Shown in pieces: positions 35,107 through 40,048 of a stretch of DNA of 40,048 nucleotides. Location of the stretch: assembly GCA_013375475.1 (NCBI GenBank), contig JABXKD010000030.1, forward strand, positions 1-40,048, given 5' to 3'. Origin of the DNA: Promethearchaeota archaeon (GTDB lineage Archaea > Asgardarchaeota > Lokiarchaeia > Sigyniarchaeales > SOKP01). The translations under genes were made by a program, and so were the position numbers. Each line of letters opens with the position of its first letter. Position 1 is the stretch's first letter. The notes below the pieces were generated by a model that was not told where the DNA came from, searched no databases, and saw only the letters and a list, made by a program, of their open reading frames with translations.

Positions 35107-36396
35107 TTAGTGTTTTCCAAAAGCTCGTTTTAAATTATCTATCCGTTTTTTTGCCATTTCTAGATTAATTTGAGCCATTTTAGGACTATCGTTCAAAATA
35201 AAGGCGTATTTTGCGAGCAATTTTCTATCATTTTCTTCCAAAGTTTCTTCCTTATTCATTTTATCAATGATAAGTAAAAGCTCACTGTAATTTTTAGAAA
35301 CTGCGTTTTCATATAGTTGGTTAAGCATAAATTCAGAAAATCTCTCTTCTTTTATCTGATTAAGTAGTTCAGTTGAATTATTACTTTCTGTAAGTGCAAC
35401 TCCTTCTTTTTTGAATTTTTTATCCTGATATTCTTGATTTTCATGAACATTATTATACAAAAATTCCATCTTTACCTGTTCTGAAGAAATAGAAGGAATA
35501 TATTCTCCTGATTCTATTAAGTCAATTAATACATCTGTAATTTCATTACTTGATTCATTTAATTCAGAATTAAGAAAATGCTTGAAGATACCCACTTTTA
35601 ATAAATGATTTATATCTTTTACTTCCCAATTAACAGTGTAGTCTACCAGAGTTTTTATGTCAAATACGATTTTGGGATTTTTTTCTGAAAAGTTACGAAA
35701 AATCGTTTCTCTCTCTATTTTATCAACCAAAGGGATTTTTATGAATAGATCAAAAACTTCAAAGATTAACCTCGAATTCGATTCGATATCTTTAATGTTA
35801 TTATTAATCCAGATGAATAATAAACCCTCTTTTATCATACTTTTCTTATCTTTAAACGATGTCATAAACAACTCTAAAAAATTTCTTTCTCTTACTTTGA
35901 CATTGGAAAAATTCTCTTGGTTTATCAAAAATATTCCTCGAATTCTATTCTCTTGAAGTTGATTTTCAGTTGGTCGAGACTCCTCGACATCTTCAGTCGT
36001 ACTTTCCTTAGCTGTTCGATTAACTTGTATTAAATTTTCCAAAATGGATGTAAAGTTGCGGAAAAACTCATCAGGCTTCTTAATTATTTCTTCTTGGTTC
36101 AGATCATAAAAATTTAAATAGTAATTTTTAGAAATTAGTTTTAAATAGTCAACTACATCTGTTCCAACACTTATATTAATCAAAATAGCTCCTTTTGGCT
36201 GGATAAATTTATTATAACTCTGTACGATCGTTTCCTCGTGATTAGTTAACATTATTTTCAAATAATTAATAATATCATTATACTTATCTCGATAAAAAAT
36301 CTCCTCTCTATCAATGTCAATTTCATCTGGTGTAATTACCCGATAGTATTTAGAGAATTCTATACCGTTATCTGTATCCGTCATAGAGAAGTTCAT
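35107..36396 (-). CDS. Degenerate AAA+ ATPase-like protein without Walker motifs
   Basis: PKGAILINISVGTD occupies the PKGxLLxGPPGxGKT position; FDLFIKIPLVDKIERETIF and a lid-like region are retained. Confidence 0.65.
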   Translation of the reverse strand: MNFSMTDTDNGIEFSKYYRVITPDEIDIDREEIFYRDKYNDIINYLKIMLTNHEETIVQSYNKFIQPKGAILINISVGTDVVDYLKLISKNYYLNFYDLNQEEIIKKPDEFFRNFTSILENLIQVNRTAKESTTEDVEESRPTENQLQENRIRGIFLINQENFSNVKVRERNFLELFMTSFKDKKSMIKEGLLFIWINNNIKDIESNSRLIFEVFDLFIKIPLVDKIERETIFRNFSEKNPKIVFDIKTLVDYTVNWEVKDINHLLKVGIFKHFLNSELNESSNEITDVLIDLIESGEYIPSISSEQVKMEFLYNNVHENQEYQDKKFKKEGVALTESNNSTELLNQIKEERFSEFMLNQLYENAVSKNYSELLLIIDKMNKEETLEENDRKLLAKYAFILNDSPKMAQINLEMAKKRIDNLKRAFGKH

Positions 36397-37039: not shown

Positions 37040-37441
37040 TTAGTTGAAAGCTAAGACTTGATTACATATGTCTAAATAATGCTTAATTTCTTCCTTATAT
37101 AAGTGATAATAAGTAAATTTTTGCTTTTTATATCCCTGTATTATACCTGTCGCAACTAGCTTTCTTAAATGATGAGAAATTGTAGATTGGGACTTATTTA
37201 ATATAGCTTCTAATTCACATACACATCTGTCTTGCTCTTTTAAAGCATTGATGATGATTAGTCGCTCTTTGGATGAAATTGCAGAGGTAAATCTTTCAAT
37301 CACATCTAAATTTTCATCTTCTTCAAAATTTTTACCCAACTCTATTAAATCTTCAATGTATGCATTTGAATTTGAACAATTATCACGTGTACATAATGTT
37401 TTATTAATTTCTAAAGATCTTTTTTGTTTCATAAGAGACAC
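37040..37441 (-). CDS. ArsR/SmtB family transcriptional repressor
   Basis: RLIIINAL...DRCVCELEAILNKSQSTISHHLRKL; additional N-terminal CxxxxC. Confidence 0.92.
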   Translation of the reverse strand: MSLMKQKRSLEINKTLCTRDNCSNSNAYIEDLIELGKNFEEDENLDVIERFTSAISSKERLIIINALKEQDRCVCELEAILNKSQSTISHHLRKLVATGIIQGYKKQKFTYYHLYKEEIKHYLDICNQVLAFN

Positions 37442-37607: not shown

Positions 37608-38150
37608 ATGGAAGAAATCAACAATCTAAAAGTTGGGATTATTTCAGATGGAAAATATGGTGAAAGAGCCTTTGAGAATATTAAAAGGAAATTTGATACA
37701 ATTTGGATCACAGTACCTGATTTGCCATCTAATCTAATGTTAGATGACGAGATTGAGACTGATATTCCTTTATGCGATATTTATATTTCTTATGTTCGCC
37801 ATCCTGATATTATCTTACAATTAGCCGAGCTTCAAAAACCATTAATTCTTGGTGTTCTCCCTGGTTTTGGTCTTTACGAGCAGGCTAAAGGAATTAATTC
37901 TAAAGTAGTTCACGCACCCACAATGTGTTCTTTAGAAAGTAATACTGGAATAAAGCAAATAGATCTTTTTACATCTTTTTATGGCAATCCGATTTATGAG
38001 ACTAAAATTGATCAAAATGGAGTGATTGAAGAAATTTCTGTAAAACGCTCCTCCTTATGTGGATCATCTGAAGCAGGTGCTAATTTTTTGATTAAGAAAC
38101 AACTTAGTGAAGAGAATCTTCAAAATAAACTTATTAAAAAAAAGGACTGA
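37608..38150 (+). CDS. DUF166-like protein, possibly C-terminally truncated
   Basis: GKYGERA, YVRHPD, PTMCSL, YGNP and RSSLCGSS motifs. Confidence 0.65.
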   Translation: MEEINNLKVGIISDGKYGERAFENIKRKFDTIWITVPDLPSNLMLDDEIETDIPLCDIYISYVRHPDIILQLAELQKPLILGVLPGFGLYEQAKGINSKVVHAPTMCSLESNTGIKQIDLFTSFYGNPIYETKIDQNGVIEEISVKRSSLCGSSEAGANFLIKKQLSEENLQNKLIKKKD

Positions 38151-38155
38151 TAATT

Positions 38156-39823
38156 ATGGCAGTATTATATATGCGCAAATTAGAGCAGGAACCAGAATCA
38201 TACGACTCTAAATTTACAACCCTTACAAAAGGTGTTAATTTAGAAGTTAGAGATTGGATACTTGATAGAATAGGTACTTCAAAATCTATCTTAGAGTTAG
38301 GATGTGGAACTGGAAGCCTTGCGACTCAAATGGCACTAAAACAGAATAACGTTCTAGCGATTGATATAAATTTTCAGATGATCAATTTTGCAATGCAGAA
38401 TTATCCTTCTGATCTAAAAGATGGTACGCTTCTATACCAGACTGGGACGTTTACAAACATGCCAGTGAGTGAAAATTCTCAGGATATAATAGTTAGTACT
38501 TTTATGTTATCTGAACTTCGACCTTTTGAGCAACAGATCTTCCTTAGAAATGCTTGGAAAGTATTAAAACCAAGTGGTCGGTTGATTGTAGCTGCTGAAT
38601 TTGTACCTAATGGTTTCTGGAAATTACTGTTTAAAATAAAAAGATGGAGATATAAAAAAAAGCTTAGACGACTTAAGTTAAGAAGCACTTTTCTCTTGAA
38701 ATGGTTCTTTAGATATATAGAACCAATTGGATTTAAAATAAATGCAAAAAAGGATTGGAAACATGGAACTATTCAAGCCCTTGAACTAGTAAAGATGGAT
38801 GATAAAGAATCAAACGAACCGGGATATTACCAACCTGAGCAAAAAAAATTCAAAGGTATTATTTCGCAGTTAAGAATATATCGCTGTATTTATACCGGAC
38901 AGGTGGATCTCGTTCCAATAGATCCTGGTCTTTACAAATCAGGAAATCCTGATAAAACTTCTCCTATCGTTGTTACCGCAAACTATGAATTTACTTTTAT
39001 CAAAGTAATGAGAGATTTGAAAGGTCTTGACGCTTGGGTGTTATGTGTTGATTCCAATGGTATAAATGTATGGTGTGCTGCAAGAGGGAACGATTTTGGA
39101 AATAATCAACTAATAGAGGCAGTTGAAGCTACTGGATTAAAAAATATTACTGAGAAAAAAACTTTAATTCTCCCACAACTATCTGCGGGAGGTGTAGCTA
39201 CTCCGGAGTTACAGAAAAAAAATAAAGAATTCCCCTTCCGAGTGGTGTTTGGACCCGTGTGGTCTAAAGACTTACCTGATTTTATAAAAAATAGACCTGC
39301 TCGAAAACCAGATAAAATGAAGCTTGCTAAATTTACGTTAAAGCATCGTTTTCGCGGATTTATTACTCACACAACCTTTCTACTCCGAAAAATATTTCTA
39401 TTGCCCTTGTTTGCATTATTCCTGATTCTATTTGCTTTAAGTTTAATAGGATTGTTCGATAAATTATGGTGGGTTGGCGAACTTTTACTTTGGGTAATAA
39501 TTTCGAACATTTTAATAACATTTTTATTTCCCATATCTAAATTTACGCGGAGATTTATATATAAAGGGATTTTCTTTGGGACATTAAATTCTATTGCCCT
39601 GGGAGTTTTAACTTATTACCTTCATAATTCAATAGTCTATATGCTAATGAGCATCGCATTTTTCTTTTGGGTTTCGTTTTTCTCTACAATGTCATTAAGT
39701 GGCTTTACGATGGCTACGAGTCCAAGTGAAATTCAAGAAGAATATCCAATTTTTAGTATCATAAATAAAATTTTATTAACAATTAGTTTGATTTCAATGG
39801 TGGTTGGAATCATTTTACTGTAA
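38156..39823 (+). CDS. Fusion of a class I SAM methyltransferase, an HgcA-like corrinoid-binding domain and a TM domain
   Basis: ILELGCGTG...VLKPSGRL; then PGLYKSGNP, SPIVVTANY, GINVWCAARG, ILPQLSAGGV, FGPV; about 4-5 C-terminal TM helices. Confidence 0.88.
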   Translation: MAVLYMRKLEQEPESYDSKFTTLTKGVNLEVRDWILDRIGTSKSILELGCGTGSLATQMALKQNNVLAIDINFQMINFAMQNYPSDLKDGTLLYQTGTFTNMPVSENSQDIIVSTFMLSELRPFEQQIFLRNAWKVLKPSGRLIVAAEFVPNGFWKLLFKIKRWRYKKKLRRLKLRSTFLLKWFFRYIEPIGFKINAKKDWKHGTIQALELVKMDDKESNEPGYYQPEQKKFKGIISQLRIYRCIYTGQVDLVPIDPGLYKSGNPDKTSPIVVTANYEFTFIKVMRDLKGLDAWVLCVDSNGINVWCAARGNDFGNNQLIEAVEATGLKNITEKKTLILPQLSAGGVATPELQKKNKEFPFRVVFGPVWSKDLPDFIKNRPARKPDKMKLAKFTLKHRFRGFITHTTFLLRKIFLLPLFALFLILFALSLIGLFDKLWWVGELLLWVIISNILITFLFPISKFTRRFIYKGIFFGTLNSIALGVLTYYLHNSIVYMLMSIAFFFWVSFFSTMSLSGFTMATSPSEIQEEYPIFSIINKILLTISLISMVVGIILL

Positions 39824-39876
39824 TAATAAATAATACAAAAAAATAAAAGGAAATTGATATATAAGAGGTATGATCA

Positions 39877-40048
39877 ATGACAGAATCAGAATTTAAAGTA
39901 AGTTTAGAAAAATTATCTATAAAGGATTTTAAAATATTCGTTAATGAATCTCTTTGCAACGGTTGCGGATTATGTGGAGAAGTGTGCCCATTTGGACTTC
40001 CTCAACCTCTTGATAATGGAAAATACGATATTAAAAATCCTAAGCTTT
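39877..40048 (+). CDS. 4Fe-4S ferredoxin, HgcB-like position (runs off the right edge; absent from ORF track)
   Basis: GAGGT SD; MTESEFKVSLEKLSIKDFKIFVNESLCNGCGLCGEVCPFGLPQ contains CxxCxxCxxxCP. Confidence 0.85.
   Translation, partial: MTESEFKVSLEKLSIKDFKIFVNESLCNGCGLCGEVCPFGLPQPLDNGKYDIKNPKL

Follow-up and report, generated by a model that had tools for sequence, protein, structure and literature searches.

We examined a 40,048-nucleotide stretch of DNA from a Promethearchaeota archaeon (contig JABXKD010000030.1; hereafter the window), which is the entire contig C212 of a genome of 3.9 Mb in 288 contigs. Its 3′ end carries a gene whose 555-amino-acid (aa) product joins an N-terminal class I S-adenosylmethionine (SAM) methyltransferase domain, similar to the NCBIfam family CpaM, to a corrinoid-type domain and transmembrane (TM) segment similar to HgcA of the mercury-methylating HgcAB pair, and the next gene encodes a ferredoxin (Table 1). 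An earlier reading of the sequence alone had proposed this arrangement, with the cap-helix Cys codon at 39074-39076 and a CxxCxxCxxxCP ferredoxin downstream, and both proposals were borne out by the translation, the codons, Pfam, NCBIfam and an AlphaFold2 model. The hallmark motifs PGLY, VTANY, GINVWCAARG, LPQL and FGPV all lie in the same 555-aa open reading frame (ORF), and the cap-helix DNA reads tgg tgt gct gca aga ggg, in which the codon at 39074-39076 specifies Cys307.

Table 1. Features of the fusion locus and its surroundings in the window (positions are those of the window; domain assignments are predictions)
Feature	Position	Strand	Basis
CpaM-like methyltransferase + HgcA-like corrinoid domain + 5-TM domain fusion, 555 aa	38156..39823	+	ORF list, Pfam, NCBIfam, AlphaFold2
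Class I SAM methyltransferase domain, CpaM-like, aa 1-215	38156..38800	+	NCBIfam NF043040; motif I GCGTG 38300-38314
HgcA-like putative corrinoid-binding domain, aa ~235-390	38858..39325	+	PF03599, NF040863; cap helix NVWCAAR 39065-39085
Five predicted transmembrane helices, aa 395-554	39338..39817	+	AlphaFold2 secondary structure, hhalign to canonical HgcA TM domain
HgcB-like 2x[4Fe-4S] ferredoxin, N-terminal 57 aa	39877..40047	+	ORF list; first CxxCxxCxxxCP 39955-39990
DUF166 protein, short form, 180 aa	37608..38150	+	PF02593 E 3.3e-22
Junction of ~1.3 kb deletion relative to L017	38127..38155		DNA alignment, window 37980-38230 (251 b) vs 1568 b of L017 (3858-5425)
ArsR/SmtB metalloregulator, 133 aa, CVC motif (RCVCELEAIL)	37040..37441	-	HTH_5 E 6.6e-17; NF033788 67.7 bits vs 55
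DUF2769 protein, small, Cys-rich, 84 aa	36624..36878	-	PF10967 E 9.8e-11

Domains of the fusion protein and its ferredoxin partner

Pfam assigned residues 46-145 of the fusion to Methyltransf_11 (E 1.1e-15) and residues 235-344 to the CdhD family PF03599 (E 1.1e-15), the latter match covering only positions 248-359 of a 387-position profile. The best-scoring NCBIfam family was HgcA_corrinoid (NF040863), which matched residues 255-550 with 188.7 bits (E 1.5e-55); HgcAB_like (NF043039) matched residues 253-518 with 182.1 bits over profile positions 14-276 of 350, and CpaM (NF043040) matched residues 4-210 with 136.4 bits (E 9.2e-40) over profile positions 3-213 of 216. The curated cut-offs of these models are 275 bits for HgcA, 285 for HgcAB-like and 180 for CpaM, and those of the HgcB and ArsM (NF008823) models are 99 and 263 bits, respectively.

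An AlphaFold2 model of the fusion, built on 29 homologues, reached a predicted local distance difference test (pLDDT) score of 89.5 and a predicted template modelling score of 0.86. Its N-terminal domain is of the Rossmann type and is followed by an alpha/beta domain and then by five long helices at the C-terminus (residues 395-430, 438-461, 467-490, 493-517 and 523-554), and this last part aligned with the TM region of the HgcA profile in both the NCBIfam and hhalign comparisons. When the model was compared with the PDB library using Foldseek, the top match was 9a0b_A, a computed structure of the HgcAB complex from earlier published work (E 3.3e-14, 28% identity, 323 columns), and class I methyltransferases ranked after it; a PDB sequence search with the fusion matched no solved HgcA structure. 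Residues 11-214 superimposed on yeast Coq5 (4obw_C) with a Z-score of 21.1 and a root-mean-square deviation of 2.8 over 201 aligned residues (VIA-align), but this score ties with many class I enzymes at Z about 20, and the methyltransferase fold is therefore uninformative about substrate.

The ferredoxin frame is open at the end of the window and, because the window is the entire contig, it is truncated by the contig end rather than by our choice of boundaries. The visible 57 residues carry CNGCGLCGEVCP, which includes the first cluster motif, and were recognised by Fer4 (E 7.1e-8) and, at 17.4 bits, by the HgcB model; they are 95% identical to the start of a complete 119-aa protein at the related locus L008. 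The sequence-only reading had asked whether a longer ferredoxin would show a second cluster motif and the C-terminal Cys tail of HgcB. Each of the 17 complete orthologues (101-120 aa) contains the CxxCxxCxxxCP motif twice as well as GCGCLW, with CC or CxC at the C-terminus, and their best NCBIfam family is HgcB_ferredoxin (NF040864), with scores of 47.0, 53.5 and 56.1 bits against a cut-off of 99. Complex prediction lends weak support to a partnership: the HgcA-like part of the L008 protein and its own ferredoxin scored 0.53, the best control scored 0.00, the runs agreed in at least 87% of contacts and the pLDDT of the partner was at least 64. Of 80 solved complexes, 58 reach the mark used for these predictions, compared with 2 of 110 mismatched pairs; among those that reach it, scores of 0.60 or less came from just seven of the 80 solved complexes and from both mismatches that passed.

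Conservation, architectures and family placement

Among 8000 candidates scored in a homologue search, 394 database proteins matched at E <= 0.001. Of the 120 best homologues listed, 119 are 541-586 aa long, carry both methyltransferase Pfam domains together with PF03599 and are 64-89% identical to the window protein. They derive from metagenome-assembled genomes (MAGs) labelled Lokiarchaeota/Promethearchaeota, Hermod-, Hod-, Heimdall- and Odinarchaeota, and NCBI names them merely "methyltransferase domain-containing protein". The fusion, or part of it, is present at 26 loci in a collection of species-representative genomes, and a ferredoxin homologue lies just 3′ of it at 22 of these, three of the other four ending at or inside the fusion gene. 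An evenly drawn sample of 121 genomes from the phylum yielded window-type matches in 19 (CpaM model, 108-152 bits), 16 of them in open frames of 553-591 aa. An all-against-all search of representatives recovered 1008 relatives of the HgcA-like part, and the best 150 of these included 10 methyltransferase-fused cluster representatives, some of which are only 33-37% identical.

Across 29 fusions reaching down to 28% identity, G49, G51 and G53 of motif I, D70 (the acidic residue after beta-2 of the methyltransferase domain) and E148 are invariant, as are N304-V305-W306-C307-A308-A309 of the cap helix and L339-P340-L342. This invariance indicates that both active-site signatures are under selection.

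Misassembly, which the sequence-only reading had named as a possible source of the fusion, is ruled out by the full-length homologues, the 26 loci and an independent contig: run X4, from a second study, yielded an 872-nt contig that spans 37621-38492, including the junction between the DUF166 and fusion genes, with zero differences. An apparent X4 joint between 38152 and 38735 was disregarded, its short side comprising just 20 letters. Contigs of run X1 cover 38938-40048 and one bin near 37306-37407 only, the uncovered parts being uninformative. The gene is also represented in contigs of two metatranscriptome libraries from two studies, which indicates presence in RNA libraries rather than transcription; one contig of 239 nt (X10) is identical over 38994-39232, and pieces from X15 are 90-95% alike and span the methyltransferase, the HgcA part and the ferredoxin.

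The same modules occur in two other arrangements. First, a free methyltransferase of 219-241 aa lies directly upstream of a 363-365-aa HgcAB-like protein at all five loci inspected (L040-L044; genomes G012, G014, G038, G017 and G023), the latter protein having GINVWCGACGDDF as its cap helix and a di-cluster ferredoxin fused to its C-terminus. NCBI names the proteins of this cassette "CpaM" and "HgcAB-like fusion protein", they come from the same Asgard genus as the window, and the HgcAB-like model gives 375 bits for the L040 member. Second, CpaM, HgcA and ferredoxin are joined in triple fusions, exemplified by P0376 (601 aa) and P0382 (582 aa), which score 362-379 bits on HgcAB_like and 256-265 on CpaM; seven such frames of 597-653 aa were identified in the sample of 121 Asgard genomes (G050, G056, G097, G104, G130, G148 and G151). 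The window type, with a fused methyltransferase and a free ferredoxin, is the third pattern, and the recurrence of the same modules in three fusion patterns argues strongly that they act as one machine.

Within the window genome, hidden Markov model (HMM) searches of the contigs identified no free cassette of CpaM and HgcAB-like protein. The HgcA model matched two genes, the fusion and a CdhE-like gene, and the CpaM model matched one. The CdhE-like gene, on contig C258 (2493-3122), gives a match of approximately 490-500 aa with internal stops (one TAG and one TAA); similar internal stops are found in the CdhE-like matches of several relatives and may reflect gene boundaries or recoding.

Taken together, we judge the chances to be about even that the genes specify an HgcA-family system for methyl transfer that is bound to the membrane, consists of three modules and is conserved in Asgard (Loki-type) archaea.

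Family placement relied on HMM scores and on three profile-profile comparisons made with hhalign. The window type aligned to HgcA with a score of 356 over 293 columns, through the TM domain, and to HgcAB-like with 307 over 254 columns, while HgcA and HgcAB-like aligned to each other with 418. The fusion shares with HgcA the cobalt-ligand-type cap-helix Cys, Cys307 being invariant in 29 of 29 fusions, and the five-TM C-terminal domain; its 188.7 bits lie well below the cut-off, which canonical representatives exceed (P0136 and P0139, with 419 and 367 bits) and which no match in any of 41 related genomes surpassed. Its 182.1 bits on the HgcAB-like model likewise compare with 362-379 bits for true members, and its ferredoxin is a separate gene. 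The CpaM score also falls short, whereas the deep fusions P0134 (211.5 bits) and P0215 (230.6 bits) pass. The methyltransferase domain nevertheless aligns with free CpaM along its whole length (23-28% identity) and has 18 invariant positions in common with the standalone protein, including G49, G51, G53, D70, E148 and T178, and G49, G51, G53 and D70 stay invariant in a 17-sequence alignment that includes standalone CpaM. The two also share an N-terminal M-x-x-L-E...Y signature that is not present in generic methyltransferase models, and the association with an HgcA-family corrinoid protein from which CpaM takes its name is here realised within one frame.

Scores on the remaining candidate families were much lower: CdhE gamma (NF003195), with a cut-off of 306 bits, gave 70.6 bits in a match confined to the corrinoid part (residues 235-380), whereas the HgcA match includes the TM part, and ArsM (NF008823) gave 39.2 bits against 263. 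The subunits CdhD and CdhE (AcsC/AcsD) of carbon monoxide dehydrogenase/acetyl-CoA synthase (CODH/ACS) have the PF03599 fold in common with the window protein (PDB matches 2h9a, 4c1n and 9fzy, E 3e-8 to 1e-5), which differs from them in its TM domain and cap-helix Cys. ArsM resembles it in being a class I SAM methyltransferase in an ars context, and the sequence likeness is only generic. The window type is, in our interpretation, a third HgcA-family lineage of greater divergence, clearly outside CdhD/E, in line with the divergent HgcA paralogue that the sequence-only reading had suspected.

Comparison with the two nearest systems makes the differences explicit. Like the window locus, the HgcA/HgcB pair combines a corrinoid domain bearing an NVWCA cap-helix Cys and a five-helix TM domain with a downstream 2x[4Fe-4S] ferredoxin that has extra cysteines, an adjoining ArsR-type regulator and SAM as the reported donor. 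Unlike that pair, the window type adds the N-terminal methyltransferase domain, has AARG rather than AAGK in the cap helix, is approximately 30% identical at the profile level while scoring below both cut-offs, and comes with a ferredoxin that has GCGCLW and longer tails and with an ACR3 gene in the operon. The cassette of CpaM and HgcAB-like protein consists of the same three modules, shares the signature M6, L9, E10, Y16, GxGxG, D70, E148 and T178 and occurs in the same phylum, often in the same genomes. There, however, either all three modules form a single protein or HgcA carries the ferredoxin while the methyltransferase stands alone, whereas in the window type the methyltransferase is the fused module and the ferredoxin the free one; its cap helix is GACGDDF, and no ars genes were seen at the five cassette loci inspected, unlike at window-type loci.

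NCBIfam defines CpaM as "corrinoid protein-associated methyltransferase" and curates it, and with it the association with HgcA-like proteins, as a hypothetical equivalog; the window-type fusion escapes the curated NCBIfam models. Our searches of the literature, supplements excluded, found no published description of a methyltransferase fused or adjacent to an HgcA-like protein, nor the phrase "corrinoid protein-associated methyltransferase", the results being dominated by unrelated CpaM acronyms. Thor- and Lokiarchaeota sequences have been placed in the fused-HgcAB subtree (PMC10083202); that analysis removed the first 327 alignment positions as poorly aligned, and the accessible part of the report makes no mention of a methyltransferase domain in fused-HgcAB proteins.

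These comparisons bear directly on whether the locus could be a true mercury methylase, that is, an HgcAB orthologue that acquired a SAM-binding domain and makes methylmercury. HgcA_corrinoid is its top family, the profile comparison places it slightly nearer canonical HgcA than HgcAB-like, complete orthologues of its partner ferredoxin have the Cys features of HgcB, and SAM is the reported donor of HgcAB (PMC11588087). We nonetheless consider this explanation, and mercury as the acceptor, unlikely. Canonical HgcA representatives carry NVWCAAGKGTFG, and the high-stringency cap-helix rule for true hgcA is N[V/I]WC[A/S][A/G/S]GK, isolates without those residues not being known to methylate mercury (PMC10087281). 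NVWCAARG breaks this rule, as do the cap helices of all ten methyltransferase-fused representatives, none of which has the Lys; cultured relatives with fused HgcAB-like proteins did not methylate mercury (PMC10087281, PMC10083202), and the gene context described below is of the ars rather than the mer type.

Operon organisation and arsenic-resistance genes

The fusion gene is preceded on the same strand by a DUF166 gene that ends 5 nt before its start codon, and an ArsR/SmtB metalloregulator is divergently transcribed from this operon. Among the 26 loci, an orthologue of arsR lies directly upstream at 11, DUF166 adjoins the fusion at seven (e.g. L009:4135-4857) and a gene for an ACR3-type permease (TIGR00832, 267.5 bits, E 1.8e-79) lies directly upstream of the fusion at nine. 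The gene order in relatives is arsR, a long form of DUF166, the ACR3-type permease, the fusion, the ferredoxin and a Cys-rich protein of 132-158 aa. When 41 relatives, mostly of one genus, were searched, 25 genomes carried the fusion, and in 18 of these an ACR3-type gene is directly upstream on the same strand, being in most cases the sole ACR3 match of the genome; among the others, ACR3 is 3.7 kb away in one, elsewhere or unplaceable in five and absent from the window genome. The fusion gene thus belongs to an arsenic-resistance operon in most relatives searched. At locus L027, a bona fide ArsM (363 bits against 263) stands beside the fusion with a DUF166 gene just upstream, and the related locus L025 also contains an FMN-reductase-type flavoprotein.

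The operon-borne ACR3-type genes of the window's genus score just below the TIGR00832 cut-off (260-281 against 282.8 bits; e.g. G012:C32:29472-30437), and a second ACR3 of about 440 bits is found elsewhere in G010 (C96:42464-43453) and G023; the fusion-adjacent permease may be a diverged ACR3 subtype with a different substrate.

The DUF166 protein of the window lacks the Cys-containing C-terminus of the long forms found in relatives (approximately 240-250 aa), and no other DUF166 match was found in the window genome. Fitness of a DUF166 gene of Methanococcus maripaludis tracks that of CODH/ACS, and the gene is needed for CO2 fixation (bioRxiv 10.1101/2024.03.05.583561). Because CODH/ACS contains the homologous CdhD/E, DUF166 may be a general accessory factor of PF03599 corrinoid proteins.

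Two further Cys-rich proteins are encoded at loci of this type. The DUF2769 gene stands beside arsR at L007-L010, L012 and L017 (tblastn). The 132-158-aa protein with a Cys-rich N-terminus that is encoded 3′ of the ferredoxin in relatives (L013:8141-8536, L020:3177-3650, L028:8038-8463) has no Pfam match to E 10 save a chance-level one to UFC1 (E 0.085) and no NCBIfam match; weak Atlas leads point to clusters of the thioredoxin-like family PF13192 (scores 0.82-0.88), which has been cited for the organoarsenical resistance protein ArsE (bioRxiv 10.1101/2022.10.17.512643).

Proposed methyl transfer and competing explanations

In HgcAB, the clusters of HgcB reduce cobalamin to Co(I), which is methylated by SAM and not by methyltetrahydrofolate; Cys93 of HgcA ligates the cobalt, and the HgcB cysteines are needed for mercury methylation (PMC11588087). 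The accessible text of this 2024 report of SAM as donor contains none of the terms "binding site", "SAM binds" and "SAM-binding". By analogy, the window locus would comprise a CpaM-type class I methyltransferase domain that binds SAM, an HgcA-like domain that would hold a corrinoid, probably cobalamin, with Cys307 as the cobalt ligand and the five helices as membrane anchor, and a separate HgcB-like ferredoxin with two [4Fe-4S] clusters and a C-terminal Cys pair. The ferredoxin would reduce the cobalt to Co(I), the fused methyltransferase domain would position SAM such that Co(I) takes the methyl group, and methyl-Co(III) would pass it to a soft metal or metalloid that the ferredoxin cysteines offer in thiol-bound form, with the operon under the control of an ArsR that has an As(III)-type CVC site. 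We think SAM-to-cobalt transfer by the fused domain somewhat more likely than not.

The product is probably a methylated metal or metalloid other than mercury. An arsenic-type acceptor is likelier than Hg(II), because ArsR has a CVC site and the operons of most relatives have an ACR3-type pump, although we put it forward tentatively, at somewhat below even chances. The suggestion of a non-mercury acceptor such as arsenic, made in the sequence-only reading, gains support from the ArsR, ACR3 and ArsM neighbours. Such an acceptor is consistent with work on ND132 that connects hgcAB to an ArsR-like regulator and to arsenic (bioRxiv 10.1101/2022.10.17.512643) and with the acr3 and arsM genes of Asgard archaea in seep sediments (PMC10060404). 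By extension, and more doubtfully still, Asgard archaea may possess a second, ArsM-independent and cobalamin-dependent route of metalloid methylation, in which As(III) or a similar soft metalloid would be methylated at the membrane by a system that ArsR controls and that neighbours an ACR3-type exporter.

Several observations weigh against this interpretation. The window protein scores below every curated cut-off (HgcA 188.7/275, HgcAB-like 182.1/285, CpaM 136.4/180). HgcAB takes a methyl group from SAM without any methyltransferase domain (PMC11588087), so an extra one is not obviously needed for cobalt methylation. No ferredoxin match was found in the 2.5 kb 3′ of the fusion at locus L023. 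The genomes searched for neighbours being mostly from one genus, the neighbour counts are not independent, three of the 18 genomes with an upstream ACR3 belonging to another family. A clade of 60-65% identity has MarR-type regulators in place of ArsR, and no ACR3 was seen at the three loci of this clade that we inspected (L025, L030 and L027). At the window itself, a deletion of approximately 1.3 kb took the C-terminus of DUF166 and the whole ACR3-type gene, and ACR3 is unmatched anywhere in the window genome, which is estimated to be complete; because the gene is lost from the locus and absent from the genome, ArsR is the only arsenic link that the window retains. Finally, arsenite methylation would be redundant, as the window genome already has an ordinary ArsM (contig C144, 341.7 bits).

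That ordinary ArsM also counts in favour of a rival explanation, a repair module, in which the methyltransferase and ferredoxin re-methylate cobalt only after accidental oxidation while methyl groups flow from another donor, or in which the system demethylates substrates such as methylated arsenicals. Methionine synthase offers the analogy, its AdoMet (SAM) domain and flavodoxin re-methylating and thereby reactivating oxidised cobalt. Corrinoid-dependent methyltransferases have been used as indicators of anaerobic arsenic demethylation (bioRxiv 10.64898/2026.08.27.747368), and the neighbouring DUF166, through its genetic tie with CODH/ACS in M. maripaludis (bioRxiv 10.1101/2024.03.05.583561), is a hint that the operon has a maintenance role. 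We hold this explanation to be as improbable as a mercury methylase: the operons inspected showed no further methyltransferase of the TIM-barrel MT1/MT2 type, SAM is reported to be the catalytic donor of HgcAB (PMC11588087), and in each of the three architectures methyltransferase and corrinoid protein stay together, which fits a stoichiometric catalytic partner at least as well.

Least probable of all is that the two halves function independently, the methyltransferase acting on a small molecule or lipid and the HgcA-like part serving as an anchor or in unrelated corrinoid chemistry such as reductive dehalogenation: the nearest solved folds are those of Coq5 and phosphatidylethanolamine N-methyltransferase (Z 20.7-21.1) and HgcAB has been reported to dechlorinate CCl4 (bioRxiv 10.64898/2026.04.26.720869), but the fold is silent on substrate, the cap-helix Cys and its surrounding residues are invariant, and the methyltransferase family occurs, as far as seen, only beside or fused to HgcA-like proteins.

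If the three modules do form a methyl-transfer system, a natural fusion of a SAM methyltransferase with an HgcA-like protein would be a tractable system in which to study how SAM reaches cobalt, and the three fusion patterns are evidence that the hypothetical CpaM family of NCBI really works with HgcA-type corrinoid proteins. The locus also ties an HgcA-family enzyme directly to an arsenic-resistance operon, which is relevant to an earlier proposal that mercury methylation was not what HgcAB evolved for (bioRxiv 10.1101/2022.10.17.512643) and to the questions of how this mercury-methylating pair arose and what it does naturally. Should the second metalloid route prove true, the HgcA family would be an ancient machinery for methylating metalloids, of which mercury methylation is a side branch, and the fusion would contain the first Rossmann-fold methyltransferase that methylates protein-bound cobalt. 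More practically, window-type genes could inflate counts of "mercury methylators" in sediment metagenomes, because they pass loose hgcA HMM thresholds.

One locus in the collection, L012 (DATKTW010000069.1), is titled as a MAG of a Nanopelagicaceae bacterium and has the arsR, DUF166, ACR3, fusion and ferredoxin genes, with 80% protein identity, which suggests that the contig was mis-binned. The window genes at 23.7-36.4 kb are unrelated to the system and include genes for Maf, a RimK-type ATP-grasp protein and an SMC-like protein, as well as several without a family. A 429-aa protein of no known family, encoded at 35107-36396, is kept beside arsR in relatives.

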